DNA of 64,000 nt from Rhodospirillaceae bacterium (GCA_016792585.1 JAEULB010000159.1:47097-111096); one strand, 5' to 3'; positions 17,576 through 33,576 are shown, counted from the stretch's first letter. Numbers and translations: made by a program. The notes: a model not told the origin generated them from the sequence alone.

Positions 17576-18379
17576 ATGGCCGCCATGAGCTGGGGCGACG
17601 AGTTCGCCGGCAAGCGCGTCGTCGTCACCGGCGCCTGCGGCATCTACGGCCGCTGGATCGCCAAGGCCTTCGACGCGGTCGGGGCGAAGCTCTGCCTCTC
17701 CGACGTGAAGGACAAGGATCTCGCTGCCTTCGCCGCGGAACTGAAGCTCTCGGACAAGGACGGGCTCACCCACAAGACCGATCTGACCGACGCCGCTTCG
17801 ATCGACGACCTCGTCGCCAGCGTGGCCAAGGCCTGGGGTGCCGCCGACATCGTCGTCAACAATGCCGGCATCTATCCGAGCGGCTTCCTTCTCGATATCG
17901 ACGTGAAAGAGTGGGACCGGATCATCGGGGTCAACCTGCGCGCGCCCTTCCTGGTCTCGCGCGGCTTCGCCAAGCTGATGATCCGGCACAAGGTCAAGGG
18001 CAGCATCGTCGACATCTCCTCGGGCGCGTCGCGCAAGATGCGGCGCACGGTGGCGCCCTACTGCCTCTCCAAGACCGCGCTCGACCGCCTCAACAAGGGC
18101 TTCGCGATCGAGCTCGCCGAGTTCGGCATCCGCGTCAACATCGTCGAGCCCGGCTTCGCGCCGGGATCGACCGCGAGCCCCCTGACGCCCGCCCATGTCG
18201 AGGCGACCCTGGCGCAGATCCCGCTCGGCCGTGCGACGCTGCCCAACGAGGCGCCGGATGCGGTGCTGTTCCTCTGCTCGAGCAAGGCCGAGTACATCAC
18301 CGGCACGACGCTGACCGTCGACGGCGGCAACTCGATCGGCAGCCTCGCCGTCCATCAGGACAAGAAGCGTCCCGGGTGA
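17576..18379 (+). CDS. SDR-family oxidoreductase
   Basis: 267 aa with a Gly-rich NAD(P)-binding N-terminus (VVVTGACGIYGRWIAKAF). Confidence 0.8.
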   Translation: MAAMSWGDEFAGKRVVVTGACGIYGRWIAKAFDAVGAKLCLSDVKDKDLAAFAAELKLSDKDGLTHKTDLTDAASIDDLVASVAKAWGAADIVVNNAGIYPSGFLLDIDVKEWDRIIGVNLRAPFLVSRGFAKLMIRHKVKGSIVDISSGASRKMRRTVAPYCLSKTALDRLNKGFAIELAEFGIRVNIVEPGFAPGSTASPLTPAHVEATLAQIPLGRATLPNEAPDAVLFLCSSKAEYITGTTLTVDGGNSIGSLAVHQDKKRPG

Positions 18380-19905
18380 CATCGTCGACGTCGAAGCGCG
18401 CCGTCGCCTCCCCTCGCGGCGTCGTCGCCGCCCAGCACCCCGCCGCCGCCGAAGCCGGGATCCGCATGCTGGCATCCGGCGGCAACGCGATCGACGCCGC
18501 GGTTGCCGCGACCCTGGCGGTTGGCGTCGTCGAGCCCTGGCTCAGCGGCATCGGCGGCGGCGGCCTGATGCTGCTTCGGCTTGCGGCCGAGGGCGTCACC
18601 CGAGGCATCGACTTCTCGATGGTCTCGCCGCGCCGCCTCGATCCGGCACGCTATGCGCTGGCGACCGGCACCGATGCAGGGCTCTTCCAGTGGCCGCGCG
18701 TCGTGGGCGACCGCAACATTTCCGGTCCGGAGTCGATCTGCGTTCCGGGGACGATCGCCGGCCTCGGCCTCGCCACCGAGCGTTTCGCCAGGCTTTCGTG
18801 GCGCCAACTGATCCAGCCGGCGATCGAACTCGCCGAAGCCGGCCTGCCTGTCGACTGGTTCACCGCACTGACCATCGGCGTCGAGGCCGGGCTCGAGGCG
18901 TATCCGGCGACGCGGATGGTGTTCCTGCCGGGCGGCGCCGCGCCGAAGGCCGATACCGGTCTGAGGCTCGCCAACCCGGCGCTGACGGGGACACTCCGCC
19001 GTCTTGCCGATGCCGGCCCCGGCGACTTCTACGAAGGCGGGATCGCCCGCGGCATCGTCGCCGACCTCGCCGCGCATGGCAGCGTGATCGATCGCGACGA
19101 CCTCGCCGGCTACGAGGCGCGGATGGTCGAACCGGCGTCGCTCGACTATCGGGGAACCGCGATCGAGGCGATGCCCGGCTTGACCGGCGGCCCGACCTAC
19201 CTCGCGGCGATGCGCGGGCTTCTGCACGACATCGTGCCCGGCACCTCGCCGACACCCGAGGCGTTCGTCGCCTACGCTCGCGCCCTCACCGCAGCCTATG
19301 CCGACCGGTTCGCGACCCACGGCCATGCCGGCCTCACCCACGATTCCGGATGCACCTCGCATGTCAGCGTCATCGACGCGGACGGCAACATGGCGTCGGT
19401 CACCAACACGCTGCTCGCCCGCTTCGGCGCCAAGCTGGTGCTGCCGTCGACCGGCATCCTCATGAACAACGGCATGATGTGGTTCGACCCGCGCCCCGGC
19501 GCCGCAAACGCGATCGCGGCGGGCAAACGGCCGCTTGCGAACATGTGCCCGCTGCTGGCGACGCGCAACGGCACGCCGGTCTTCGTCATGGGGGCCGCCG
19601 GCGGGCGGCAGATCGTGCCGGCGCTGGTGCAGCTGACCTCGCTCCTGCTCGACTTCGGCATGTCGGTCGACGAGGCGCTGCGCGTCCCGCGCCTGGACGC
19701 CAGCACCTCGACCGTGATCTGCGACGACCGCATGCCCGCGGGCCAGGTCGCGGCGATCGCACAGTCGTTTCCGGTCTCGCGCATCGCCGACACCGTCTAT
19801 CCGGTGCAGTTCGGCGTGCCTAACGCAGTGGTTCGCGAGCGCGGCCTCAATATCGGCATGGCGCATCCGACCACGCCGTGGCCAGTCGCGCTGGCGGAGA
19901 GCTAG
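18376..19905 (+). CDS. ggt: Gamma-glutamyltransferase family protein, paralog 3
   Basis: A GTG start overlaps the SDR stop (GTGA). It is in frame with the track ORF 17911-19905. The N-terminus VVAAQHPAAAEAGIRMLASGGNAIDAAVA matches the other two paralogs. The catalytic Thr lies in CTSHVSVIDADGNMASVTNTL. Confidence 0.75.
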   Translation: MTSSTSKRAVASPRGVVAAQHPAAAEAGIRMLASGGNAIDAAVAATLAVGVVEPWLSGIGGGGLMLLRLAAEGVTRGIDFSMVSPRRLDPARYALATGTDAGLFQWPRVVGDRNISGPESICVPGTIAGLGLATERFARLSWRQLIQPAIELAEAGLPVDWFTALTIGVEAGLEAYPATRMVFLPGGAAPKADTGLRLANPALTGTLRRLADAGPGDFYEGGIARGIVADLAAHGSVIDRDDLAGYEARMVEPASLDYRGTAIEAMPGLTGGPTYLAAMRGLLHDIVPGTSPTPEAFVAYARALTAAYADRFATHGHAGLTHDSGCTSHVSVIDADGNMASVTNTLLARFGAKLVLPSTGILMNNGMMWFDPRPGAANAIAAGKRPLANMCPLLATRNGTPVFVMGAAGGRQIVPALVQLTSLLLDFGMSVDEALRVPRLDASTSTVICDDRMPAGQVAAIAQSFPVSRIADTVYPVQFGVPNAVVRERGLNIGMAHPTTPWPVALAES

Positions 19906-20282
19906 GCGAGTTCCTTCGCGAGCTCGTCCAACATGTGGAAGGCGGTGTTGGCCGCAGGCACGCCGCAGTAGATCGCCTGCTGCAGCACGATCTCCTTGAG
20001 GTCGTCGGGAGAGAACCCGCCCTCGACAAGCGCCGCGCGCGCATGCATGCGGAACTCGTCCCAGCGCGACAGCGCAAGCAGGGTGCCGATCACCAGGATC
20101 CGCCTGGTGCGGATGTCGAGGCCGGGTCGGGTCCAGATCTCGCCCCAGGCGTAGCGCGTGATCAGGTCCTGGAAGTCGCGCGTGAGGTCGTTGGTCTTCG
20201 CCACCGAGCGGTCGACATGGGCGTCGCCGAGCACCTTGCGGCGGACGCTCATGCCGGCGGCATGGCGCTCCTTCTCATCCAT
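19902..20282 (-). CDS. pcaC: 4-carboxymuconolactone decarboxylase
   Basis: 126 aa. The N-terminus MDEKERHAAGMSVRRKVLGDAHVDRS is a textbook PcaC N-terminus. Confidence 0.85.
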   Translation of the reverse strand: MDEKERHAAGMSVRRKVLGDAHVDRSVAKTNDLTRDFQDLITRYAWGEIWTRPGLDIRTRRILVIGTLLALSRWDEFRMHARAALVEGGFSPDDLKEIVLQQAIYCGVPAANTAFHMLDELAKELA

Positions 20283-21621
20283 TCCCGACCTCCTTCGACA
20301 GCACCTGCTCGACGAACTCGGCCGCCACGCCGAGATAGGTCTCGGGCATCATCAGCACCTCGATCTCGTCGGGGCTGAGATATCGGGAGACCTGTGGATC
20401 CTCGGCAAGAACCGTCTTCAATGGCAGGCCCTCGGCGATCGACCTGCGGCAGGCCGCCTCGATCAGCTCATGCGCCTTGGCTTTGCCGAGCCGGCTGCCC
20501 AGCGTCGCCGAGACCGCCTCCGCCAGCACCAGCCCACCGGTCACCTCGATGTTGGCGCGCATCCGCTTCGCATCGACGACGAGGCCGCCGAGCGCGTCGG
20601 CGATCGAGCGTGCTGCGCCGCCGGTGATCCGCACCAATTCCGGCAGCGTCTCCCATTCGGCCTGCCAGCCGCCGAGCCCGCGCTCGTGCTCCTGGCCCAT
20701 CGAACCCAGCATCGTCGCGACCAGGCCCGGCGCGCGCGATGCCGCCGCCAGCGCCACGGAGGCGGAAACCGGGTTGCGCTTGTGCGGCATCGTCGAAGAT
20801 CCGCCACGGCCCGCCGCCGGCGCCTCATAGGCCTCGCCGATCTCGGTCTGGCCCATCAGCGCGAGGTCGCGCGCAATCTTGGACAAGGTTCCGGCGACGA
20901 GGCCGAGCGTCGTCGCCAGCGCGACGAGGCGCTCGCGCTGCGCATGCCAGGGCAGATCCGGGACCGGCAGGCCCAGGCGGAAACCGAGCACGCGGCCGAC
21001 CTCCGGACCGTCGCCGCCGAGCGAGGCCAGCGTGCCGGCAGCGCCGCCGAACTGAAGCACGCAAGCCGCCTCCAGATCGGCATCAAGCCGGGCGCGCACG
21101 CGGCGAAGCGCGTCGAGCCAGCCCGCCGCCTTGAGTCCGAAGGTGACCGGCACCGCCTGCTGCATCCAGGTGCGTCCGATCATCGGCGTCTCGGCATGCA
21201 CGCGCGCGTGGCCGGCAGCCGCGGTCGCGGCGCGGGCCAGATGCGCCGAGATCGACGGGATCGCCTTCCTGAGCTGGAGCACCAGTCCGGTGTCGATGAT
21301 GTCCTGGCTGGTGGCGCCGATATGGACGAACCTGGCGGCATCCGCGTCCGACGCCGCGACCAGCGCCGTCATCGCCTTGACCAGCGGGATCGCCAGGTTG
21401 CCGGCCCTGGCCGCGTCCTCGGCGAGCGCCGCGCGATCGTAGAGCTGCGCCTTGCCGGCATTCCTGATCGACGCCAACGCCTCGCTCGGCACCAGGCCGA
21501 TATCGGAGGCCGCCTCGGCGAGCGCCACCTCGACATCGAGCATCGCCTGCAGGCGTGCCTCGTCGGAGAGCGCGCTATTGACCTCGGCGTCGCCGAAGAG
21601 ATGGGACGTCAGCTCGCTCAC
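20275..21621 (-). CDS. pcaB: 3-carboxy-cis,cis-muconate cycloisomerase
   Basis: Fumarase/aspartase-family signature GSSTMPHKRNP. 448 aa. Its end overlaps pcaC by 8 nt. Confidence 0.85.
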   Translation of the reverse strand: MSELTSHLFGDAEVNSALSDEARLQAMLDVEVALAEAASDIGLVPSEALASIRNAGKAQLYDRAALAEDAARAGNLAIPLVKAMTALVAASDADAARFVHIGATSQDIIDTGLVLQLRKAIPSISAHLARAATAAAGHARVHAETPMIGRTWMQQAVPVTFGLKAAGWLDALRRVRARLDADLEAACVLQFGGAAGTLASLGGDGPEVGRVLGFRLGLPVPDLPWHAQRERLVALATTLGLVAGTLSKIARDLALMGQTEIGEAYEAPAAGRGGSSTMPHKRNPVSASVALAAASRAPGLVATMLGSMGQEHERGLGGWQAEWETLPELVRITGGAARSIADALGGLVVDAKRMRANIEVTGGLVLAEAVSATLGSRLGKAKAHELIEAACRRSIAEGLPLKTVLAEDPQVSRYLSPDEIEVLMMPETYLGVAAEFVEQVLSKEVGNG

Positions 21622-22172
21622 GGAGCGAAGAAGACGGTCTCGTCCTTCCCCTGCAGCACGATGTCGAACCGGTAGCGGCCGTCGGCGACGCGTTTGGCGA
21701 TCAGCGTCGGGGCGCGATCGGCCGGCACCAGCTCGAGGATCGGGTCCTGGTCGTTGGCGGCTTCGCCGTCGAAATAGAGCCGGGTCACCAGCCGCGTCAG
21801 CAGGCCGCGGGCGAAGACGCCGACCACCAGGTGCGGTGCCTGCTGGCGGTTGCCGGGGCCGGGCACCGGACCGGGCATCACCGTGGTCAGGCTGAAGCGG
21901 CCTTCGGGATCGGTCGGAGCGCGGCGGAATCCGTCGAATGCCGTCGCGGTTCCGGCGCGGCCGTCCTCGGGATGATGGTAGCGGCCGGACGAGTCTGCCT
22001 GCCAGGTCTCGATCAGCGCATCCGGCACCGGCGCGCCGGCGCCGTCGCGGACCGTTCCCTCGATCGTGACGCGCGCGCCGTCGGGCGAACCGACGATCTC
22101 GCTGCAGCCGTCGAAGACGAGGCCGAAGCGGAAGAACGGCCCGACGGTCTGGAAGGGAGTGGCGCCGGTCAT
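21618..22172 (-). CDS. pcaG: Protocatechuate 3,4-dioxygenase alpha subunit
   Basis: It starts at the internal Met (MTGATPFQTVGPFF), whose ATG overlaps the pcaH stop (ATGA). Confidence 0.8.
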   Translation of the reverse strand: MTGATPFQTVGPFFRFGLVFDGCSEIVGSPDGARVTIEGTVRDGAGAPVPDALIETWQADSSGRYHHPEDGRAGTATAFDGFRRAPTDPEGRFSLTTVMPGPVPGPGNRQQAPHLVVGVFARGLLTRLVTRLYFDGEAANDQDPILELVPADRAPTLIAKRVADGRYRFDIVLQGKDETVFFAP

Positions 22173-22879
22173 CCTTGCGCTTCCATCGGCGTCGCGTTGC
22201 GACCGCGCACGATCATGTCGAAGCGGTAGCCCAGCGCCCATTCCGGCTTGGTCAGGTTGAAGTCGAACGTCGAGACCATCCGGTCGCGCGCCTTCGGATC
22301 GCTGGTCGAGTTGAAGATCGGGTCGTGCGCCAGCAGCGGGTCACCCGGGAAGTACATCTGGGTGATCAGCCGCGTGAGGAAACTGGGCCCGAAGATCGAG
22401 AAGTGCAGATGCGCCGGCCGCCAGGCGTTGTGATGGTTCCGCCAGGGATAGGCGCCGGGCTTGATCGTGACGAAGCGATAGCGTCCCTCGGCATCGGTGA
22501 TCGCACGGCCCGCGCCGGTGAAGTTGGGGTCCAAAGGCGCGTCGTGCTGGTCGCCATCATGGCGGTAGCGCCCGGCGGCATTCGCCTGCCAGAGCTCGAC
22601 CAGCGTGTTCGGGATCGGGCGCTCGTCCTCGTCCAGCACCAGGCCCTCGACGATGATCCGCTCGCCCTGGGCCGGCGCCTTGCCCTGCATCGTCAGGTCG
22701 ACCTCGAGCGGGCCGAAGCGCTCGAATCCGGCGACCGGTCCGGTGATCTCGGACAACGTCTGCGGGATCGTGATCGCCGCCTGCTTGGGATGCCGGAGCT
22801 TGGTCGAGCCGTAGCCTTCGTAGGCATTCGACGGATGGGTTCCGTCTGGGATCGGCCGATAGGGTCTGAGGCTGGTCAT
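22169..22879 (-). CDS. pcaH: Protocatechuate 3,4-dioxygenase beta subunit
   Basis: The segments ELWQANAAGRYRH, WRPAHLHF and SIFGPSF match the intradiol dioxygenase beta chain. The start is taken at MTSLRPYRPIPDG. Confidence 0.8.
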   Translation of the reverse strand: MTSLRPYRPIPDGTHPSNAYEGYGSTKLRHPKQAAITIPQTLSEITGPVAGFERFGPLEVDLTMQGKAPAQGERIIVEGLVLDEDERPIPNTLVELWQANAAGRYRHDGDQHDAPLDPNFTGAGRAITDAEGRYRFVTIKPGAYPWRNHHNAWRPAHLHFSIFGPSFLTRLITQMYFPGDPLLAHDPIFNSTSDPKARDRMVSTFDFNLTKPEWALGYRFDMIVRGRNATPMEAQG

Positions 22880-22934
22880 CCGATGAGTCCCGGTGAATCC
22901 TGCCCGCATGTTAGCAGCCGTCCGCGAATTGCGC

Positions 22935-22948
22935 CCGGCAATTGCCGG
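22935..22948. promoter_or_regulatory. Perfect 14-bp palindrome CCGGCAATTGCCGG in the pcaH/Ldh2 divergent promoter region
   Basis: The sequence is its own reverse complement. A related half-site, GAATTGCGCC, lies immediately upstream. Confidence 0.4.
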
Positions 22949-23010
22949 CCTCCAAGGCCCGTGGCAGGGTGGCGGCCCGCCGATTTCCTGACCATTCCAG
23001 CGAGACTTCC

Positions 23011-24108
23011 ATGGCCGAGACGACGCGCTATCACCGGATCGCGCCCGCCAACCTCAAGAAGGCGATCATGCTCGTCTTCGCACAGGTCGGCAGCAGCACG
23101 CGCGAGCAGGAGCTGACCGCAGACCACCTGGTCGCGGCCAACCTCGCCGGCCACGACTCCCACGGCGTCGGGATGATCCCGGCCTACCTGCAGGCCTGGC
23201 GCGAGAAGAAGCTGACGATCAATGGCCGGCACACGGTCGCGGTCGACTCGGGACCGATCCTGACCGTCGATGGCGGCTTGGGCCTCGGCCAGGTGATCGC
23301 CTACGACGCGATGAACCTCGGCATGGAGCGGGCGAGGCAGATGGGCGTCTGCATCCTCGGCATCCGGAACGCTCATCACACCGGCCGCATCGGCCACTGG
23401 GCCGAGCAATGTGCCGCCGGGGGCTTCGTCTCGATGCACTATGTCGCGGGCTTCGCCGGCGTGACCTCGGTCGCCCCCTTCGGCGGCAGCCAGACCCGCT
23501 TCCAGACCAATCCCTATTCAGCGGGATTCCCGCTGCCGGGCCGGCCGCCGATCATCCTCGACTTCGCCACCTCGAAGATCGCGATGGGCAAGGTGCGCGT
23601 CGCCTTCAACAAGGGCGAGCAGGTGCCGGAGAACTGCCTGATCGACGCCGAGGGCAAGCCCACCCGCGATCCGGGCGTGATGTACGCGCCGTCCGACAAG
23701 CGCGGCGCCCTCTTCACCTTCGGCGAGCACAAGGGCTCGGGGCTGGCGATGATCTGCGAGCTGTTCGCCGGCGCGCTCACCGGCGGCGGCACGACATACC
23801 CGGGCAACTACGAGAACCGCCCGATCATGAACAGCATGCTGTCGATCATCGTCGAGCCGTCCAGGCTCGGCGGCGGCGACAATGTCGGGCCCGAGGCGAA
23901 CCGCTTCGTCGACTGGGTCAAGTCATCGAAGCCGTTGCCGGGCGTCCAGGAAGTGCTGGTCGCGGGCGAGCCCGAGCGCAAGCGCCGCGCCGAGCGCGAG
24001 CGCGACGGCATTCCCGTCGACATCACCACCTGGAGCGAGGTGGCGAAGGCTGCCGAAGCCGCCGGCCTCAAGCGTTCCGACCTCGACAAGGCAGCGAGCC
24101 TCGCCTGA
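23011..24108 (+). CDS. Ldh2 family (malate/L-lactate dehydrogenase type 2) oxidoreductase
   Basis: It carries the NAHHTGRIG motif typical of the Ldh_2 family. The start is taken at MAETTRYHRIAPANL. A TTG alternative exists at 22942. Confidence 0.7.
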   Translation: MAETTRYHRIAPANLKKAIMLVFAQVGSSTREQELTADHLVAANLAGHDSHGVGMIPAYLQAWREKKLTINGRHTVAVDSGPILTVDGGLGLGQVIAYDAMNLGMERARQMGVCILGIRNAHHTGRIGHWAEQCAAGGFVSMHYVAGFAGVTSVAPFGGSQTRFQTNPYSAGFPLPGRPPIILDFATSKIAMGKVRVAFNKGEQVPENCLIDAEGKPTRDPGVMYAPSDKRGALFTFGEHKGSGLAMICELFAGALTGGGTTYPGNYENRPIMNSMLSIIVEPSRLGGGDNVGPEANRFVDWVKSSKPLPGVQEVLVAGEPERKRRAERERDGIPVDITTWSEVAKAAEAAGLKRSDLDKAASLA

Positions 24109-25598
24109 TGGCGAAGATGCTTTCGTGGTCCGAGTGGTCGTCGCTCGACGCGATCGCATTGGCCAAGCGGATACGCTCCGGCGAGATCAGCGCGAAGGAA
24201 GCTGCTCAGCAGGTCGCCGCCGGCATCGCCCAGCTCAATCCGAAGCTGAGGGCCGTGCTGGAGGTGTTCGAGGAGGTCGTCGCCAATCCCGACACGGACG
24301 GCCCGGACCGCGCTGGCCCCTTCTACGGCGTGCCGCTGCTGCTCAAGGACGTACTGTCGGGCCTCAAGGGCCGGAAGCTCGAGAACGGCTCGCGACAGTT
24401 CCGGGGCAACGTGGCACAGGCGACCGACCCGCTGATCGAGAACTATCTCGGCATGGGCCTGGTGCCGATCGGGCGGTCGACGACGCCGGAGTTCGGCTGG
24501 ACCTTCGACACCACCACCGACTACCTCGACGAGCTGATCGTCACCCGCAGTCCCTGGAACCTCGAGCGCACGCCTGGCGGATCCTCCGGCGGATCGGCGG
24601 CGATGGTCTCGGCCGGCGTGCTGCCGATCAGCATGGCCTCCGACGGCGGCGGCTCGATCCGCATCCCGGCCTCGTTCTCAGGTCTCGTCGGACACAAGCC
24701 GTCGCGAGGCCTGGTGCCGCGGAACCTCTCGTCCAGCGAGTACATGACCCGCCATGTCTACGAAGGCGTGGTGACACGGACCGTGCGCGACACGGCGCTT
24801 GCCCTCGACGGGCTCGCGCGCGGGCCGGAAGGCGGTTTCTTCATCCGGGCGACACCGGCCGTCCCCTCCTTCCTCGCCGCGATCGGCGACCTGCCGACGC
24901 GATGGCGGATCGGATTCTCCTGCGGGTCCTGGGGAGCCAGGTCGCCGGTCGACGCGGCCGTCGTCCAGCGGCTCGGCGAGGTCGCGAAGCTCCTCGAGAG
25001 CCTCGGCCATACGGTCGAGGAGGTGAAGGACGCCGACCTCTGCGATTTCGAAAGGCTCCGGCGCGGCTACACGACCCACAATCGCGCCGTCCGGCGCGGC
25101 CAGATCGAGGCGGCCAGGCAGCGCGGCCAGAGCCTCGAGGATCTGGCCAAGCTGATGTCGCCGACCTACTACCAGCACATGCTCACCTCGCAGGAAACGA
25201 CGCTGTTCGACCTGCAGCGCGCATTCGCCGACAACAACGCCTCGATCCGCAGCTTCGGTCACGCCATGGCGACGTTCGACGCGCTGCTGACGCCGACCCT
25301 GTCAATCCGCGTGCCGAAGGCCAACGGCCCCTACTCGCCCTACAGCGACGAGCCCTTCGCGCCCTGGTTCGAGCGTCTCTACGATGCCTGCCGCTACACC
25401 ATCCCAGGGAACGAGACCGGCATGCCCTCAGTCTCGGTTCCGGCCGGCCTCGATGCCGACGGCATGCCGATCGGCGCGCTGCTCCACGGCAAGTTCGGAC
25501 GCGACGACATGGTGCTCAGACTCGCCGCCCAGATCGAGGCGGCGAAACCCGAGTGGTTCTCGCCGAGACCTCGCCACCACATCGCGGCCAATCCGTAG
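24108..25598 (+). CDS. Amidase (amidase-signature family), paralog 1
   Basis: The [14 protein letters not shown] signature is present. The ATG overlaps the stop of the Ldh2 gene (TGATG). Confidence 0.85.
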   Translation: MAKMLSWSEWSSLDAIALAKRIRSGEISAKEAAQQVAAGIAQLNPKLRAVLEVFEEVVANPDTDGPDRAGPFYGVPLLLKDVLSGLKGRKLENGSRQFRGNVAQATDPLIENYLGMGLVPIGRSTTPEFGWTFDTTTDYLDELIVTRSPWNLERTPGGSSGGSAAMVSAGVLPISMASDGGGSIRIPASFSGLVGHKPSRGLVPRNLSSSEYMTRHVYEGVVTRTVRDTALALDGLARGPEGGFFIRATPAVPSFLAAIGDLPTRWRIGFSCGSWGARSPVDAAVVQRLGEVAKLLESLGHTVEEVKDADLCDFERLRRGYTTHNRAVRRGQIEAARQRGQSLEDLAKLMSPTYYQHMLTSQETTLFDLQRAFADNNASIRSFGHAMATFDALLTPTLSIRVPKANGPYSPYSDEPFAPWFERLYDACRYTIPGNETGMPSVSVPAGLDADGMPIGALLHGKFGRDDMVLRLAAQIEAAKPEWFSPRPRHHIAANP

Positions 25599-25679
25599 GA
25601 TTTCGGTCAAGCCCGGCTTCGCTTGACGCAATCGGCGGCGCCTCGCCACGCTCGGTCTGGGAAATTCCTGGAGGGAACG

Positions 25680-27182
25680 ATGGCGAAGCAGGCTCTGTCG
25701 TGGTCGGAATGGGCGTCGCTGGACGCGCTGGCGCTGGCCGATCTCGTCGCCAGGAAGAAGGTCTCGGCGAAGGAGGTCGCGGCCCAGGCCAAGGCCGGCA
25801 TCGACGCGGCAAACCCGACGCTCGAAGCGGTGCTGGAAGTCTTCGAGGACGTCGTCGCCAATCCCGACAAGGACAGGCCGAACAAGGACGGCGCCTTCTA
25901 CGGCGTGCCGCTGCTGCTGAAGGACATCGGCTCCGGTCTCAAGGGCCGCAAGCAGGAGTCGGGATCGAAGCTGCTCCGCGACTTCGTCGTGGCCGAGACC
26001 GATCCGCTGGTCGCCAACTTCCTCGGCGGCGGCCTGGTGCCGATCGGCCGCTCGACCACGCCAGAGTTCGGCATGACCTTCGACACCACCACCAGCTACC
26101 TCGACAAGGTCATCACCACCCGCAATCCGTGGAACCTGAAGCACACGCCGGGCGGATCGTCGGGCGGGTCGGCGGCGATGGTCTCGGCCGGCGTGCTGCC
26201 GATCAGCATGGCCTCCGACGGCGGCGGCTCGACCCGCATTCCCGCCTCGTATTGCGGCCTGGTCGGTCACAAGTCGTCGCGCGGCCTGGTGCCGCGCCAG
26301 ATCGGCGGCAGCGACTACCAGTCGCGCCATGTCAACGAAGGCGTGGTCACCCGGTCGGTCCGCGACACCGCGGCCGCGTTGGACGCGATCGGGCACGGAC
26401 CGCAGGGCGGCTTCTTCGTCCGCGTGACGCCGGCGGTGCCGTCGTTCCTGGACGCCCTGAAGGACGTGCCGAAGGGATGGAAGATCGGACTCTCGACCGG
26501 TCCCTGGGGCCGGTCGACGCCGGTCGACGACCAGGTCGCCGCCCGTATCCGCGAGGTCGGCAAGCTGCTCGAGAGCCTCGGCCACACGGTCGAGGAAGTG
26601 AAAGACGAGCAGGTCTGCGACTGGACCGCGATGTGGCGCGGCTACATCGCTCACTGGATCTCCAGCCGCATGGCGCATCAGGGCCTGGCACGCAGCCGCA
26701 ACGTCGACGCCTCGCGGATCAAGGACTTCATGGTGCCGATGGTCTGGCGGCACTTCGAGGCGGCGCAGACCTACAAGCTGGTCGACCTGATGAACGCGAT
26801 GAACGACAACAACGTCGTTACCCGCGCCTTCGGCAAGCTGATGGACAGGTACGACATGCTGCTGACGCCAACCCTGGCGATCCGCGTGCCGCTGGCGAAC
26901 GGCCCCTACTCCCTGCTCCGCGACGAGCCGCTGACCGGCTGGATGGACCGCCTCGCGGATGCCTGCCGCTTCACCATGCCCGGCAACGAGACCGGCGTGC
27001 CGGCGATCTCGGTTCCGGCCGGCCTCGACTCCGACGGCCTGCCGATCGGCGCCCAGCTTCACGGCAAGTTCGGCCGCGACGACATGGTGCTGAGGCTGGC
27101 GGCCCAGGTCGAGGCGGCGAAGCCGGAGTGGTTTGCCGCGCGGCCGAAGAACCACATCGCGGCAGGTACGTGGAGCGTCTGA
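25680..27182 (+). CDS. Amidase (amidase-signature family), paralog 2
   Basis: It starts at [11 protein letters not shown], after a strong GGAGGG Shine-Dalgarno. It is collinear with, and closely similar to, paralog 1 over its whole length. Confidence 0.85.
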
Positions 27183-27192
27183 GGCTGTCTTG

Positions 27193-27229
27193 AACGTTCC
27201 GTTGCGATTTGGCGTCGCAACGGAACGTT
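27193..27229. promoter_or_regulatory. Perfect 15-bp inverted repeat AACGTTCCGTTGCGA-N7-TCGCAACGGAACGTT
   Basis: It lies between the amidase-2 stop and the histidine kinase start. No U-tract follows on either strand, so it may be a GC-type terminator or an operator. Confidence 0.45.
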
Positions 27230-27280
27230 AACCCCGATGGTGGTAGCGAGAGCTTCGACTAGCTGCCACATTCGAGACAA

Positions 27281-28966
27281 ATGCGCTCTAGCGCCACGCA
27301 CCACCGGACGCTGACAGCGATCGTCGTCGCCGCCGTCGTGGCCGTGTCGGCGATCTGGGCGGCGGCGATCTCGCTGGCGATCCAGGACCGGCGCGACGTG
27401 TTCCGCGATGCGGAGACCGAGCTGATCGGCACGCAGAACGCGATCTCGGCGCATGTCGAGCGCACTTTCGAGAACGGCCGCTTTCTCCTGACGGCGGTCG
27501 ACCTCTGGCTCGGCGATGCGGACAACCAGCGCCCGCTCGACCAGCTGGCCTCGTGGATCACGACGCTCGAAAGCGCACAGGAGACCCCGCTCACGGTCCA
27601 CCTGTTCGACCAGGCCGGCGACATCGTCCGCTACGGCGATCCGAGAGTCGATGCCGTCAACATCCGCGACCGCGACTACTTTCAGGAGCTGCAACGCCGG
27701 TTCCCGCGATATCACTACGTCGGCGCGGGGATCGTCGGCCGCGACACCGGCCGCAGAGTCATCCCGCTCGCGACCAAGATCCCGGTCAATCGCTTCGGCA
27801 TCGCCTATGCCGTCGCCTCGATCCCGACCCAGGTGCTGGTCGAGGCCTTCGAGGGCCTGCTGGTGACCGCTCCCGGCGTCGTCGGCATCATCCGCGAGGA
27901 CGGTACCTTCCTGCTGAGGACGCCGGACGAGAAAGCCCTGACCGGCACCCAGATCGACCTGAGCAGCGTGCTGAGCCTGACGCCGGAGTCCCCGCGCGCC
28001 GGCTTCTTCATTCACCGCCTGGGCAGCGGCGCCGAGGCCATGACCGCCTACTCGCGCCTGAACTCGCTGCCCCTCTACGTCTTCGGCACCTTCCAGATAT
28101 CCGACCTACTCGCCAAGGTTCAGGATCGGTCACGTCCGAAAATCCTGACCGCGGCCGCCTCGACCGTTCTCGTCGTGCTCGCCGCCGCCCTTCTCGGATT
28201 CCTGATCGTGCAGCGCGAGAGGGAGGCCAGGCGCGTCGCCGATGCGCTGGTCGCCGCCGACGAGGCGAGTGCGGCGAAGACCCAGTTCCTCGCCAATGTC
28301 AGCCACGAGCTCCGCACGCCGCTCAACGCCGTCATCGGCTTCTCGGAGACGCTGGCGGGGCAGTTCTTCGGGCCGTTGTCGGATCGCTATCGCGGATATG
28401 CCGAGGACATCCTGTCGTCCGGGCGACACCTGCTCAGCATCGTCGACCAGCTGCTCGACATGGCCTCGATCGAGGCCCGGCGCGAGCATCTGAGACCCGA
28501 GCCGGTCGCGATCGACGAGATCGCCGATGCGGTCGCCCATATGATGCGGCCGATGGCCGACCAGCGCGGCATCCGCGTGGCCGTCCGCCACCCGGGCGAA
28601 CCGATCACGATCGAGAGCGACAGCCGTTGCGTCCGCCAGATCCTGATCAACCTGATGAGCAACGCCATCCGCTTCTGCCGCGCCGGCGGCGAGGTCGCGC
28701 TGTCCTGGAACCGCGACGGCGGCCACGTGAACGTGGCGATCGAGGACCAAGGCCCCGGCATCGCCGAGGAAGACCTGCCGCGGATCTTCGATCTCTTCTG
28801 GCAGAGCGAGGACGCCTATGCGCGACGCCACGGCGGCATCGGCCTCGGCCTGCCGCTGACCAAGACGCTGACGACGGCGCTCGGCGGCACCATCGCGGTC
28901 ACCAGCGAGGTCGGCGTCGGGAGCCGCTTCGTCGTGCGGCTTCCCGACACGCTGACTGCCGCCTAG
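27281..28966 (+). CDS. Sensor histidine kinase with a periplasmic sensing domain flanked by TM segments; orphan, with no response regulator nearby
   Basis: H-box VSHELRTPLNAVIGFSE. The HATPase_c N, G1 and G2 boxes are present (LINLMSNAIRF ... DQGPGI ... GGIGLGL). There are two TM segments. Confidence 0.85.
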   Translation: MRSSATHHRTLTAIVVAAVVAVSAIWAAAISLAIQDRRDVFRDAETELIGTQNAISAHVERTFENGRFLLTAVDLWLGDADNQRPLDQLASWITTLESAQETPLTVHLFDQAGDIVRYGDPRVDAVNIRDRDYFQELQRRFPRYHYVGAGIVGRDTGRRVIPLATKIPVNRFGIAYAVASIPTQVLVEAFEGLLVTAPGVVGIIREDGTFLLRTPDEKALTGTQIDLSSVLSLTPESPRAGFFIHRLGSGAEAMTAYSRLNSLPLYVFGTFQISDLLAKVQDRSRPKILTAAASTVLVVLAAALLGFLIVQREREARRVADALVAADEASAAKTQFLANVSHELRTPLNAVIGFSETLAGQFFGPLSDRYRGYAEDILSSGRHLLSIVDQLLDMASIEARREHLRPEPVAIDEIADAVAHMMRPMADQRGIRVAVRHPGEPITIESDSRCVRQILINLMSNAIRFCRAGGEVALSWNRDGGHVNVAIEDQGPGIAEEDLPRIFDLFWQSEDAYARRHGGIGLGLPLTKTLTTALGGTIAVTSEVGVGSRFVVRLPDTLTAA

Positions 28967-30372
28967 GCCGCCATCGTCTTCAGCAGCGCCAGCGCTTCCT
29001 TCTCCAGGGTCTCGGCCGCGGTCGGCGCATAGGGCGTCGCCCATTCGGTCTCGTAGCCGCCTTCGGCATAGGCGTCGGCGACCGGCACGTAGCCCTGCCA
29101 GCCGTTCGAGTATCCGGCGAGCTGGACCACCGGCAGCGGCGCGGCATCGCGGACGCGCGCGCCGATCCGCGAGAACGGCTCCAGCGGCGCCCCGATCAGA
29201 CCGACATTGCCCAGGCGGATTCCATGCAGGTCGACGCTCATATGGGTCTGGCCCTGGGTGATCCTCGCCCAATGCGCGTTCATCGCCGCCCGTTTGTAGC
29301 GGGCATTGGTGTCGGAGATCTCCTGCGGGCTGGCCTTGGTCTTGTCGATCGCGACCATCGCCTGGGCGAGACGCTCCTGCTCTGCCGTCGCGTCCGCGGC
29401 AGAGCCGTAGTTGCGCACCGGCAGCTTCGCCTTCCGGGTCGTCACCACCAGCTTGGTCTCGGCCTCGGGCCCGGTGTCCTCGGCCCAGAGGCCGAGGGGC
29501 GCGCCCGACTCCACAACCTTGTCGAAGCGCCTGACGATCGGGCGCGTGCGGAGCGCCATCAGGACCCGCGACGCCTCGGCGCCGAGCCTGGTCCCGATCC
29601 GCCGCGGGATCCGCACGTCGCCGGTCAGGCCTTGCTCCGGCATCTGGTCGCCGGCGCAACCCTGCAGGAACAGGCAGGGCGCACCGGTCAGCTGCTCGAC
29701 CACGCGCTTCACCGTTCCCGGATAGTCCGGGCTGATCAGCCGGTTCTGATGCGCCAGCGTGATCGGATGCGTGCCGAAGCCGACGATGGAGGCGATCGGC
29801 TTCTCGTCCAGGTCGTCGATGCGGACCGCCGTGACGGTCTGGTCGACATACCCGTCGCGGTTCTCGGCGACCAGCACCGCGCCCGACGGCCCCTTGAAGC
29901 GCCGGTTCACGGTGATGTCGCTCTTGCCGTAGCCGCCGATCACGCGCGCCTGCTTCGGCGCCATCATCGCCTGGCGCACGGCGCCGACGAGCTGCGCGCG
30001 CACATAGTCCTGATATGCCGGCACCAGCTCGGCGCCCGGAAGCTTGCTGTTGCCGCCGAAGCCGCCGGAGACCGACCAGGGCGGACCGGCATGGGTGTGC
30101 GTGTAGGCAAGACGTACGGCCTCCGCCGGCACGCCGGCGACGTCGCCGATCATCTTCCGAAGCTCGTCCGACTCGTCCATGCCGAAGGAGCCGAAGTCGA
30201 CATCCATCAGGACGGCCTTGGTGTTGCCGTCCTCGATGATCATCGCCGTCGCCCAGAGCTCCATGTCGATGCCCTCGGCACGGTCGTGCACGCGGGCACC
30301 CCAGTTGGTGTGCGCGATGCCGACGGGCGGCGTGATGTCGGTGCGGCCGACGCCGACACGAAGCTTGGACAT
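28963..30372 (-). CDS. Neutral/alkaline ceramidase-like hydrolase (hypothetical)
   Basis: 469 aa. The N-terminus LRVGVGRTDITPPVGI resembles the neutral ceramidase N-terminal domain. There is a strong AAGGAGA RBS. Confidence 0.45.
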   Translation of the reverse strand: MSKLRVGVGRTDITPPVGIAHTNWGARVHDRAEGIDMELWATAMIIEDGNTKAVLMDVDFGSFGMDESDELRKMIGDVAGVPAEAVRLAYTHTHAGPPWSVSGGFGGNSKLPGAELVPAYQDYVRAQLVGAVRQAMMAPKQARVIGGYGKSDITVNRRFKGPSGAVLVAENRDGYVDQTVTAVRIDDLDEKPIASIVGFGTHPITLAHQNRLISPDYPGTVKRVVEQLTGAPCLFLQGCAGDQMPEQGLTGDVRIPRRIGTRLGAEASRVLMALRTRPIVRRFDKVVESGAPLGLWAEDTGPEAETKLVVTTRKAKLPVRNYGSAADATAEQERLAQAMVAIDKTKASPQEISDTNARYKRAAMNAHWARITQGQTHMSVDLHGIRLGNVGLIGAPLEPFSRIGARVRDAAPLPVVQLAGYSNGWQGYVPVADAYAEGGYETEWATPYAPTAAETLEKEALALLKTMAA

Positions 30373-30393
30373 GGGTCAGGTCTCCTTGATTAC

Positions 30394-30786
30394 TCAGGCA
30401 GCGCGCGCGGCGACCGCCTCGATCTCCACTAGGAACTCGGGCCGGGCGAGCCCGGCGACGATCACGAAGGTAGAGGCCGGAAAGTCCGGCCCCGGAAGAT
30501 GCTTCAGCCGCGCCGTGCGCACGGCCGGGATCAGGTCGCGGTCGACGACAAAGGTCGTCACCTTGACCAGGTCGGCCTCGGTCATGCCGCCTGATGCCAG
30601 CACGCGGAAGACGTTGGACCAGGCGTGATCGGCCTGCGCTTCCGCGCCCTCGGCCAGCGTGCCGTCCGGCGCAATGCCGAGCTGGCCGGACACGAAGATC
30701 CAGCGCAACCCCTTCTCGACCGCGATCCCGTGACTGTAGGCGCCGAGCGGCGGCGCCATTGTCGGCGGGTTGAGGCGTTCGTGCAT
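30394..30786 (-). CDS. ridA: RidA/YjgF family protein
   Basis: About 130 aa with the typical fold signature (GLRWIFVSGQLGIAPDG...TTFVVD). The start is taken at MHERLNPP, and 30813 is an alternative. Confidence 0.75.
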   Translation of the reverse strand: MHERLNPPTMAPPLGAYSHGIAVEKGLRWIFVSGQLGIAPDGTLAEGAEAQADHAWSNVFRVLASGGMTEADLVKVTTFVVDRDLIPAVRTARLKHLPGPDFPASTFVIVAGLARPEFLVEIEAVAARAA

Positions 30787-30793
30787 CGACGCT

Positions 30794-31771
30794 TCAGCTC
30801 TTGGGACGGACACCCATCGCCAACAGTCGGTCCCTCATCCGGTCGGTCGCGGCTGTGATCGCCGCGGCGATCGTCGGCTCGACGCTCTTGTGGCCGGCCT
30901 CCAGAACCCAGGTGAACTCCGCCTCGGGCCATGCCTTGTGCAGCTTCCAGGCGACGTAAGGGCGCGTGGTCTGGTCGTAGCGGCCCTGGATGATCGCGCC
31001 CGGGATGTGGCGGATCTTGGAGACGCCGTCGATCAGCTGGTTGGGCTTCAGGTAGAACTTGTTGACGCAGTAGTCGGTCCAGAATCGCGCCAGCGGAATG
31101 CAGGCCTCCGGCGCGAGGCCGCCCGGCAGCGCCGTCGGATCCTCGCGGAACGGGATGGTGAAGCAGCTGTATGTGGCGAGCGCGCGCGCCGCCGGCAGAT
31201 GCACCTTGGGATCCGGGTCGAGCGCCCGCTTGTGATAGGCCTTCAGGAGGTCGCCGCGCTCGGCTTCGGGAATGAAGCTGGCGAGCTCCCACCAGCGTTC
31301 CGGGAAGATGTTCTTCTGACCGTTCCACCACCAGTCGACCTCGTCGTCGCCGCCGGTGAAGATGCCGCGGATGACGATGCCGTGGCAGCGCTCGGGGTGG
31401 TTCTGGGCGTAGTGCAGCGACATGAAGCTCGACCACGAGCCGCCGGTCACCAGCCACTTCTCGACGCCCATCTCCTTCCGCACCTTCTCATAGTCGGCGA
31501 GGATGTGGGCCGTGGTGTTGTTGGCGAGCTCGCCGTTCGACGACGACTTTCCGGTCCCGCGCTGGTCGAAGACGATGATGTCGAAGAAGTCCGGATCGTA
31601 GTTGCGGCGATTGTCCGGCACCGTCCGCCCGCCCGGCCCGCCATGCGTGAAGATCACCGGCACGCCCTTCGGGTTGCCCGACCGCTCCCAGTAGAGCTCG
31701 TGAAGATTGTCGACCTTGAGCTTGCCGGTCGTATGCGGCTCGATCGACGGGTAGAGAGCGGGCGAGGCCAT
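30794..31771 (-). CDS. pip: Proline iminopeptidase (alpha/beta hydrolase)
   Basis: It has the nucleophile elbow GGSWSS and the oxyanion region HGGPGG. The start at MASPALYP has a GGAGA Shine-Dalgarno 9 nt upstream. Confidence 0.8.
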   Translation of the reverse strand: MASPALYPSIEPHTTGKLKVDNLHELYWERSGNPKGVPVIFTHGGPGGRTVPDNRRNYDPDFFDIIVFDQRGTGKSSSNGELANNTTAHILADYEKVRKEMGVEKWLVTGGSWSSFMSLHYAQNHPERCHGIVIRGIFTGGDDEVDWWWNGQKNIFPERWWELASFIPEAERGDLLKAYHKRALDPDPKVHLPAARALATYSCFTIPFREDPTALPGGLAPEACIPLARFWTDYCVNKFYLKPNQLIDGVSKIRHIPGAIIQGRYDQTTRPYVAWKLHKAWPEAEFTWVLEAGHKSVEPTIAAAITAATDRMRDRLLAMGVRPKS

Positions 31772-31849
31772 CGATGAAGTCTCCGTGACGTGAGACCGGC
31801 GGCGCACCTGGGCGCGCCGCCGGTCGGACTTGACGCTATGCCGAGGAGA

Positions 31850-33448
31850 TCAGTCCTTGGCGATGTTGAACAGCACCAGCTTCGAGGTGGGAAGCACGCC
31901 GGAGACGTTCTTCCGCCAGGCGTAGGGCTGGTCGTACTGGCCGGTCATGACGTAGGGCACGACCTCCCAGAGGCGACGGTGCAGCTTGTCGAGGACCGCC
32001 ATGCGCTCTTCCTTGGTCTGGGCGGCGATGAAGGCATTGCGCAGCTTCTCGGTCTCCTCGTCGGCGGCCCAGCCGGCCCAGCTCGAATCCGTCGACATGT
32101 TGGTGCCGAGGTTGGTCAGCGGGTTATGCCAGGTCGACCACGAGCCCGAGGCCGACCACAGATGCCAGCCGCCGCTCTCGCCGGGCTTGTTCTTGTTGCC
32201 GCCGAACCGGGTCACCATCGTGCCCCAGTCCATCATCTCGAGCTCGACGTTGACACCGGTCTTGCGCAGGCCGTCGACGAGGACCTCGGTGATCGCGCCG
32301 ATGTGGGCGATCTCCTTGGTGCCGATCACGTAGATCTTCTCGCCCTTGTAGCCGGCCTCGGCGAGAAGCTGCTTCGCCTTCTCGCGGTTGACCTTGCGGT
32401 AGGGCTCGGAGCCGACCTCGGTGCCATAGGCCGACTTGCAGACGAAGAAGCTGTAGCACTCGTTCCACCACTTCTTGTCGCCGAAGCCGGCGGCAAGGAA
32501 GTCCTCCTGCGAGGCGATCAAGGCGAGGGCCTGACGGGCCTTGATGTTGTTGAACGGCGGGTGCAGGCCGTTCGGGCGGAAGAAGCCGAAGCCGCCGACC
32601 GGATGCACCTTCTGGACGACGATGTCCTTGTCCTTCTCGAGCAAGGGCAGGATGTCGCCGGCCGGCATGTCGATCATGTCGACTTCGCTCTTGAGGAGCG
32701 CGGCGGCGGCGGTGTTGGCGTCGGGAATCACCTTGAACACGAGGCGATCGACCTTCGCCTGCTTGCCGCCGGCCATCGCATTCGGCGGCTCGGAGCGCGG
32801 CACGTAGTCCGGGTTCTTGACGTAGACGACCTCGGAGCCCGGCTTCCACTCGGAGGCGACGAACTTGAACGGACCGGAGCCGATCTGCGCATCGTTGGGG
32901 ACGGCGGTGAACGGATCGACCATCGCCTCCTTCTCGCGCATCATCGCCGGGAAGTTGCCTGCGTGGTTGCCGAGCGAGTACTCGACCCAGGCATAGGGCT
33001 GCTTCATCTTGATGACGAAGGTGTTGGCATCGGTCGCGGTGATGCCGGCGACGCTCTCGCCCATCTTGCGGCCGATCGGGTCGCGCTTCATCCAGCGGTT
33101 GATCGAGGCGATGATGTCCTTGGTCGTGACCGCGGTGCCGTCATGCCACTTGAGGCCGGGCCTGAGCGTCATCGTGTAGGTCAGCTTGTCCGCCGAGACC
33201 GCGGAGTTGCTCACCATCTGCGGCATCGGCTGCAGATCGACGTCCCAGGCGAAGAGCTGATCGTAGATGTTGGTCGCATGCATCGTCGTGATCGTCGCCG
33301 CCGCCTGCAGCGGGTCGAGCACGCGAAGATCGGCATGCGGGATGATGGTCAGCGTCTTCTGCGCCGACGCCGGTTGCGCATGGAGCCCGAGGCCCAAGGC
33401 CAAGGACATCGCCGTCAGGGCGCCCAAGCGCCCGGTGTAGGATTTCAT
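31850..33448 (-). CDS. ABC transporter substrate-binding protein, family 5; orphan
   Basis: It starts at MKSYTGRLGALTAMSLALGLGLHAQPASA, after GGGAGG. Confidence 0.8.
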   Translation of the reverse strand: MKSYTGRLGALTAMSLALGLGLHAQPASAQKTLTIIPHADLRVLDPLQAAATITTMHATNIYDQLFAWDVDLQPMPQMVSNSAVSADKLTYTMTLRPGLKWHDGTAVTTKDIIASINRWMKRDPIGRKMGESVAGITATDANTFVIKMKQPYAWVEYSLGNHAGNFPAMMREKEAMVDPFTAVPNDAQIGSGPFKFVASEWKPGSEVVYVKNPDYVPRSEPPNAMAGGKQAKVDRLVFKVIPDANTAAAALLKSEVDMIDMPAGDILPLLEKDKDIVVQKVHPVGGFGFFRPNGLHPPFNNIKARQALALIASQEDFLAAGFGDKKWWNECYSFFVCKSAYGTEVGSEPYRKVNREKAKQLLAEAGYKGEKIYVIGTKEIAHIGAITEVLVDGLRKTGVNVELEMMDWGTMVTRFGGNKNKPGESGGWHLWSASGSWSTWHNPLTNLGTNMSTDSSWAGWAADEETEKLRNAFIAAQTKEERMAVLDKLHRRLWEVVPYVMTGQYDQPYAWRKNVSGVLPTSKLVLFNIAKD

Positions 33449-33576
33449 CTCTTCGCCTCCCGTTTTGATCCGCCCCGAAGTCTCTCGGATCGGAAACCGA
33501 TCCGGACGATGCAACTGTCCGACCGGCGTCATTCCCTGTCAATTGCGGGCAAGGACGGCCGAAACCGGACTTCTCC

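Follow-up and report, generated by a model that had tools for sequence, protein, structure and literature searches.

Does a dehydrogenase gene followed directly by two amidase genes represent a freshly duplicated catabolic operon, or a looser assembly of genes? This question is posed by a locus from a Rhodospirillaceae bacterium (GCA_016792585.1), which we analysed within a 64,000-nt stretch of contig JAEULB010000159.1 (47097-111096; hereafter the window, with positions counted from its first letter). Direct reading and a listing of open reading frames (ORFs) resolved positions 23011-27229 into an Ldh_2 gene, an amidase gene (A1), an 81-bp spacer, a second amidase gene (A2) and an inverted repeat. 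A preliminary description of this DNA had interpreted the Ldh_2 gene and the amidase pair, the latter thought to be recently duplicated, as one three-gene unit. Comparison with related loci leads us to a different reading: the region is probably a lineage-specific catabolic neighbourhood of a small clade of uncultured Rhodospirillales, and not a freshly duplicated operon. The genes themselves add members to known families; it is their arrangement that is specific to the lineage.

An old and asymmetric amidase duplication

Aligned pairwise, A1 and A2 are collinear with one gap, in line with the preliminary description, which had also called them highly similar; the similarity amounts to only 65% identity at the amino-acid and 72% at the nucleotide level. 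Twelve related loci were recovered from the same clade. Across them, A1 orthologues are mutually 83-92% identical and A2 orthologues 77-97%, whereas every A1/A2 pair falls at 60-67%. The A2 protein of the window shares 77-93% identity with the A2 or single amidase of the compared relatives and 97% with its nearest database homologue. A1, for its part, matches at 100% identity an NCBI protein derived from a Rhodospirillaceae metagenome-assembled genome. A neighbour-joining analysis (200 bootstraps) placed A1 as a long-stemmed clade outside the A2 and single-copy amidases, with 97.5% bootstrap support. With paralogs (63-65% identical) far below the orthologues of either copy (83-93%), and A1 outside the clade of A2 and single-copy amidases, the pair fails as a recent tandem duplicate: the duplication is old. 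That the two amidases are paralogous nevertheless holds. Relative to the outgroups, 20 derived states are common to A1 and the A2 clade, so A1 arose locally as a paralog and was not imported from afar.

Nucleotide identity between A1 and A2 was equal within and across genomes (0.69-0.72), giving no sign of gene conversion. A 64-nt identical run (codons 164-184) is also nearly intact in cross-genome A1/A2 pairs, and gene conversion was rejected on this ground as well.

Between the paralogs, the ratio of nonsynonymous to synonymous substitution rates (dN/dS) was 0.45-0.57, a value that is not meaningful as synonymous differences are saturated, given a G+C content at third codon positions of ~0.9 and a proportion of synonymous differences of ~0.4 even for orthologues that are 91% identical. 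Selection was judged from ortholog comparisons instead. These yielded dN/dS values of 0.13-0.21 for A1 and 0.12-0.17 for A2; both copies are under purifying selection.

The divergence between the copies is asymmetric and now constrained, and it affects probable pocket positions. Where A1 and A2 differ by fixed residues (45 positions), the outgroup state matches A2 at 31 positions and A1 at only 6, and residues 326-355 show 20% identity between the copies but 78-80% within each. We thus read A1 as the derived, fast-evolved copy and A2 as the ancestral sequence type. Two points weigh against too precise a date: whether A1 arose before or after the split between A2 and the L002-type amidase (L numbers denote individual loci) is read from a neighbour-joining tree in which the A1 branch is long, and the informative shared-derived sites bearing on it stand at 0 versus 1, too few to decide.

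Linkage and control signals across related loci

Inspecting the gene content of the clade loci revealed an uneven distribution of A1 and of the sensor histidine kinase gene that follows A2 in the window. Both are present in the window, L177, L001 and L181; L005 carries A1 without the kinase gene, L178 the kinase gene without A1, and L095 and L002 have neither. At the place of A1, L096 harbors two unrelated minus-strand genes. Ldh_2 relationships are congruent with A2 relationships, which, together with this presence pattern, identifies A1 and the kinase gene as independent, dispensable additions to a core composed of Ldh_2, one amidase and a block of convergent genes downstream.

The preliminary description had called for a search for the Ldh2-amidase arrangement in related genomes. 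Within the narrow clade it is kept: Ldh_2 and amidase adjoin in all 10 clade loci covering both genes, across Ldh_2 divergence down to 76%. Several findings speak against extending this linkage to a functional unit. Two opposite-strand genes lie between Ldh_2 and the amidase in L096 (5931-7868). Around ~150 loci with amidase relatives of 30-66% identity, where flanks of at most 10 kb and often less were covered, there was no Ldh_2 or ceramidase-like gene; the neighbours were variable and included NMT1-type transporters, an aminotransferase and other amidases. Likewise, no amidase lay beside the two Ldh_2 relatives (52-56% identity) whose context was examined. Since the linkage is confined to a narrow clade and interrupted in L096, functional coupling of dehydrogenase and amidase is weakly supported, and the restriction to one clade gives an obligate two-enzyme pathway weak comparative support. 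With A2 possessing its own upstream box (see below), the L096 insertion and no linkage outside the clade, the proposed three-gene unit is not supported by these comparisons. As a separate observation, translations of the inserted L096 genes resembled, by eye, a Gfo/Idh/MocA-like oxidoreductase and a TIM-barrel or AP-endonuclease-2-like protein.

The junctions on either side of A1 are of different kinds. Upstream, the overlap of the Ldh_2 stop with the A1 start in TGATG, noted earlier, is confirmed, and a CTGATG stop/start junction recurs in 5/5 A1 loci. No terminator intervenes between the two genes, and A1 appears to be translationally coupled to Ldh_2. Downstream, the 81-bp distance to A2 and its GGAGGG Shine-Dalgarno sequence were likewise correctly described. 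Ahead of A2 or the single amidase, all 11 of 11 loci carry a bipartite box, (G/C)CTTGAC-N14-CTNGCNANGCT, at fixed spacing and ~60 nt from the start codon. The box is kept whatever the upstream neighbour, be it A1, Ldh_2 or the L096 insertion, and its pattern is unique in the window, against a chance expectation of 0.03 matches.

A second, recurring element, a CCCTCTCC/GGAGAGGG hairpin, precedes the box on the side of the upstream gene in L095 (1625-1645), L178 (~4150-4172), L001 (~9503-9532) and L097 (~615-642). It stands directly 3' of Ldh_2 in single-copy loci and 3' of A1 in L001; in the window it is lost. Box and hairpin together suggest that A2 is probably under its own control region, in which the box would act as a promoter. 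A point against promoter activity is the departure of the box from the sigma-70 consensus; a scan of 22000-28000 returned no sigma-70 promoter and no canonical terminator. A sigma-54 or sigma-32 reading of the box and of the motif upstream of Ldh_2 (below), judged by eye only, was unconvincing.

The spacer hairpin GTCAAGC-N8-GCTTGAC described earlier does exist, one base to the left of where it had been placed, but it folds at chance level (-10.3 kcal/mol, z = -1.1, 25/200 shuffles as good) and is not conserved as a hairpin. L001 and L005 have a different left arm, and the conserved right arm is the GCTTGAC of the A2 box.

Upstream of Ldh_2, the intergenic region shared with pcaH contains a perfect palindrome, CCGGCAATTGCCGG, and beside it a GTGGCAGGGTGGC motif at 22961-22973, which may represent a candidate operator and promoter for Ldh_2. 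Of seven aligned loci, six retain CAATTGCC and TGGCAGGGT as cores, and three of them (window, L001 and L005) have the full 14-bp palindrome. L002, which has no pca genes at this upstream position, retains palindrome and GTGGCAGGGTGGC motif in part.

Protein families and competing explanations

The Ldh_2 ORF runs from an ATG at 23011 to a stop codon at 24106-24108 and encodes RNAHHTGRIG, comprising the NAHHTGRIG motif already recognized. Its product scored 327 bits against PF02615 (cut-off 38.8) and 470.6 bits against the NCBIfam equivalog NF007504 (cut-off 336; residues 6-362). Among solved structures, the best match was E. coli YbiC (2g8y; E = 3.6e-98), alike across the full length, with sulfolactate dehydrogenase (E = 2e-46) and DpkA (1wtj; E = 1e-36) far behind. 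Many homologues are annotated by the Joint Genome Institute as hydroxycarboxylate dehydrogenase B, in agreement with the 2-oxo/2-hydroxy-carboxylate dehydrogenase activity that we take to characterize the YbiC/HcxB type, and which is the predicted activity of the Ldh_2 protein. The preliminary description had instead pointed to the reductases of cyclic imines. The delta-1-piperideine-2-carboxylate/delta-1-pyrroline-2-carboxylate reductases DpkA and LhpD (1wtj, 2cwf) have PF02615 in common with the Ldh_2 protein but lie much farther from it than YbiC; in view of this distance and the equivalog score, a DpkA-type identity was rejected and the imine-reductase lead is unsupported. The window differs from E. 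coli in the translational coupling of its Ldh_2 gene with a gene for an amidase; E. coli ybiC is not known to adjoin amidase genes. Separately, one database protein (P0131, 500 aa) shares 90% identity with the Ldh_2 protein over 64% of the query and carries an extra PF20091 domain; encoded on a short contig, it could reflect a gene fusion or an artefact of gene calling.

Both amidases belong to the amidase-signature family, with PF01425 scores of 227 bits (A1) and 261 bits (A2) against a cut-off of 27 and with intact Ser-cisSer-Lys motifs. Their closest solved relative is NylA, the 6-aminohexanoate-cyclic-dimer hydrolase (3a2p, 3a2q; E = 2e-53 and 2e-50), which aligns end to end with either copy; LLKD, GGSSGGS and SDGGGS(I/T)RIPAS coincide with NylA Lys72, cis-Ser150 and Ser174. 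The relationship is distant. The substrate-recognition residues of NylA are Asn125 and Cys316 (PMC12767561). The former corresponds to M132 in A2 and W131 in A1, the latter to W326-I327 in A2 and N325-R326 in A1, with the alignment there uncertain by ~1 residue. Cys316 (or its aromatic variant) and Asn125 thus being replaced in both copies, membership among NylA-type cyclic-dimer or lactam hydrolases was rejected, and the likeness is no evidence for hydrolysis of nylon oligomers or lactams.

Both NylA-equivalent positions are among the fixed A1/A2 differences. Given these changes and the outgroup pattern described above, the earlier suggestion that the amidases are diverging in specificity is a plausible one. 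As a point against any closer functional assignment, neither copy reached the cut-off of any specific amidase model in NCBIfam. The named equivalogs scored included AtzE, allophanate hydrolase, GatA, indoleacetamide hydrolase and PRK07869; the last came closest (273 and 284 bits versus a cut-off of 418), the others falling further below. In general terms, the amidases would convert an amide to an acid and ammonia, and the dehydrogenase would contribute a 2-oxo/2-hydroxy acid redox step.

Clusters of amidase-signature paralogs occur in other genomes as well, namely three genes in tandem in L016 (116-4470), a tandem pair in L027 (8506-11443) and a divergent pair in L087 (4286-7500), so clustered amidase genes are common. 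What sets the present locus apart is that one copy is joined to a dehydrogenase gene by a stop/start overlap and that the A1/A2 divergence is strongly asymmetric.

How closely the Ldh_2 and amidase genes belong together can be argued in more than one way. They might be unrelated neighbours, adjacent by accident and serving different pathways, as the lack of Ldh_2 around amidase relatives (54-66% identity), the lack of an amidase near the two examined Ldh_2 relatives (52-56%), the opposite-strand genes in L096 and the hairpin and box separating Ldh_2 from the amidase in single-copy loci would all suggest. We consider this possible but not likely: accident sits poorly with an adjacency kept in all 10 clade loci covering both genes, across Ldh_2 divergence to 76%, and the A1-Ldh_2 coupling seen in 5/5 cases would be hard to maintain unless co-expression were tolerated or useful. 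At the other extreme stands the proposal of a single operon for the catabolism of cyclic imino acids or lactams, in which a recent amidase pair would work with a DpkA-like cyclic-imine reductase. Although NylA, a cyclic-diamide (lactam) hydrolase, is the closest solved amidase structure, the convergent block includes a gene for prolyl aminopeptidase and Ldh_2 and A1 do overlap, we regard this as very unlikely: Ldh_2 is of YbiC type by equivalog and closest structure, with DpkA far more distant, the duplication is old, the recognition residues of NylA are conserved in neither copy, and A2 has its own conserved box.

A further alternative concerns A1 alone, which could be a redundant copy under relaxed constraint, drifting towards loss without having gained a function. 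A1 is indeed missing from L095, L178 and L002 and replaced in L096, and its long branch and its loss of family-conserved residues would fit such a fate. Drift is hard to reconcile, however, with intact ORFs in five lineages, an ortholog dN/dS (0.13-0.21) near that of A2, 78% conservation of the remodelled segment within A1 and intact catalytic motifs, making this explanation, too, highly improbable.

The lineage-specific neighbourhood that we favour probably developed as follows. The ancestral layout would have consisted of a YbiC/HcxB-type dehydrogenase gene, a spacer with a hairpin and the promoter-like box, and a single amidase gene, convergent with a block for a ceramidase-like protein, RidA, prolyl aminopeptidase and peptide-binding proteins. 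An old tandem duplication would then have set A1 directly at the dehydrogenase stop codon, such that it is now presumably translated through coupling with the dehydrogenase. A1 would have changed fast at substrate-pocket positions while retaining the Ser-cisSer-Lys machinery, would since have been held by purifying selection, and appears to have been lost or replaced in some lineages, a course that fits an altered amide specificity. A2, in turn, would retain the ancestral sequence type; since it has an upstream box and a ribosome-binding site of its own, it is probably expressed at least partly by itself. The inverted repeat would be an RNA stem-loop closing the A2 message at its 3' end, most likely ending or stabilizing the transcript and insulating the downstream kinase gene. 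A more far-reaching scenario, in our view quite unlikely, has A1 neofunctionalized and captured by coupling to the HcxB-type dehydrogenase, creating an undescribed two-step route from amide to 2-hydroxy/2-oxo acid to redox partner; A2 would act on the ancestral substrate, and the dCache-type kinase behind the U-tract-less stem-loop would sense the same compound.

Beyond annotation, the locus has little significance. It provides a small, clean example of asymmetric divergence after amidase duplication, in which A1 was remodelled and recoupled and A2 keeps its box, and of how gene adjacency in a single genome overstated a functional unit. If found, the substrates would put a name to amidases of a currently anonymous clade, common among Alphaproteobacteria of soil and fresh water.

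The inverted repeat and flanking genes

The perfect inverted repeat with 15-bp arms reported downstream of A2 is present exactly where it had been placed: AACGTTCCGTTGCGA-N7-TCGCAACGGAACGTT, with fully complementary (100%) arms at 27193-27207 and 27215-27229. It is the sole perfect short-loop inverted repeat of at least 15 bp in the window and folds far better than expected by chance (-26.5 kcal/mol, z = -5.3, 0/200 shuffles as good). As its sequence is unique in the window, a dispersed element resembling repetitive extragenic palindromes or miniature inverted-repeat transposable elements was rejected. Rfam returned no match at E values up to 1 across 22000-29500.

The repeat is confined to loci with the kinase gene after A2. 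Its stem is kept in the window, L177, L001 and L181, with both partners of some pairs exchanged: two T-A pairs have given way to A-T and one G-C pair to A-T; a further pair is G-T and can form solely as G-U in plus-strand RNA. Loci without the kinase gene have almost no spacer or, as in L002 and L095, unrelated strong hairpins at the same place. Adjoining the repeat, the CGTTAAC at 27226-27232 is invariant and a second hairpin, GTGGTAGC...GCTGCCAC (27240-27269), is conserved in all six kinase loci, with one both-sides change within this hairpin; both elements persist where the 15-bp repeat is degenerate.

Most likely, the inverted repeat acts as an RNA 3'-end or insulating stem-loop of the A2 message and is followed by control sequences of the kinase gene. 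In its stability and its position 10 nt past the stop codon it resembles rho-independent terminators, as it does in that relatives hold unrelated hairpins at the equivalent place. It differs from them in being unusually long, perfect and relatively A+T-rich; lacking a U-tract, it does not qualify as an intrinsic terminator of the canonical type. Counting against a terminating role are this missing T-run after the stem, the yield of 0 terminator-like sites in 22000-28000 and the degeneration of the repeat in L178 and L180. The chief alternative, a DNA operator for a dimeric regulator of the kinase or amidase genes, draws on the perfect, relatively A+T-rich palindrome 51 nt 5' of the kinase start codon, on the exclusive occurrence of the repeat in kinase-bearing loci and on the overlap of its right arm with the invariant CGTTAAC. 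We nonetheless judge an operator unlikely: the stem sequence varies while pairing persists, the G-T pair works solely in plus-strand RNA, L178 and L180 have degenerate arms despite the presence of the kinase gene, and no regulator gene adjoins.

Table 1 Features of the locus (window coordinates; strand '.' denotes unstranded).
Feature	Position	Strand	Basis or remark
Perfect 14-bp palindrome CCGGCAATTGCCGG, pcaH-Ldh_2 intergenic, candidate operator	22935..22948	.	core CAATTGCC conserved
Ldh_2-family NAD(P)-dependent oxidoreductase, YbiC/HcxB type (predicted), 365 aa	23011..24108	+	PF02615, NF007504, closest structure 2g8y
TGATG, Ldh_2 stop/A1 start overlap (putative translational coupling)	24106..24110	+	sequence reading; CTGATG junction in 5/5 A1 loci
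Amidase A1, 496 aa, derived, fast-evolved amidase-signature paralog	24108..25598	+	PF01425, long stem branch
A1-A2 spacer, 81 bp	25599-25679	.	sequence reading
Small spacer hairpin GTCAAGC-N8-GCTTGAC	25606..25627	+	right arm alone conserved, as part of A2 box
Bipartite box GCTTGAC-N14-CTCGCCACGCT, promoter- or operator-like	25621..25652	+	~60 nt 5' of A2 start; conserved in 11/11 loci
GGAGGG Shine-Dalgarno of A2	25670..25675	+	4 nt ahead of ATG 25680
Amidase A2, 500 aa, ancestral-type amidase-signature copy	25680..27182	+	PF01425, agreement with outgroups
Perfect 15-bp-arm inverted repeat, 7-nt loop, predicted stem-loop	27193..27229	+	10 nt past A2 stop codon
Invariant CGTTAAC (27226-27232) and second hairpin GTGGTAGC...GCTGCCAC (27240-27269)	27226..27269	+	5' of kinase gene; six kinase loci
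Orphan sensor histidine kinase, 561 aa	27281..28966	+	Pfam HisKA and HATPase_c, weak dCache_1
Convergent partner block: neutral-ceramidase-N-terminal-like, RidA-family, prolyl aminopeptidase, peptide-type substrate-binding protein	28963..33532	-	Pfam and NCBIfam

The kinase, for which Pfam returned HisKA, HATPase_c and a weak dCache_1 match, has no response regulator gene adjoining its own. Only some members of the clade carry the kinase gene here (it is absent in L005, L095, L096 and L002); orthologues with 71-89% identity follow directly after the amidase in all three further lineages looked up, and likewise in L001. At their stop codons, the kinase gene and the convergent ceramidase-like gene (28963-30372) overlap by 4 bp. 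In the minus-strand block, a neutral-ceramidase-N-terminal-like protein and a RidA-family member are encoded together with a prolyl aminopeptidase (300.9 bits against TIGR01249, cut-off 259.75); its further products are two peptide-type binding proteins and one protein of the enolase superfamily. Beyond the block lies a plus-strand gene for a D-2-hydroxyacid dehydrogenase. Synteny of the block holds throughout the clade wherever a locus reaches far enough to reveal it, although RidA had no match in L002, L095 and L096.

On the other side, Pfam identified pcaH, pcaG and pcaB on the minus strand upstream of Ldh_2. The corresponding pcaHGB(C) protocatechuate branch (17911-22909) is divergent from Ldh_2 and, as mentioned, absent from this position in L002. 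Further upstream of the pca genes lie those for a gamma-glutamyltranspeptidase-family protein, a short-chain dehydrogenase and another peptide-type binding protein.

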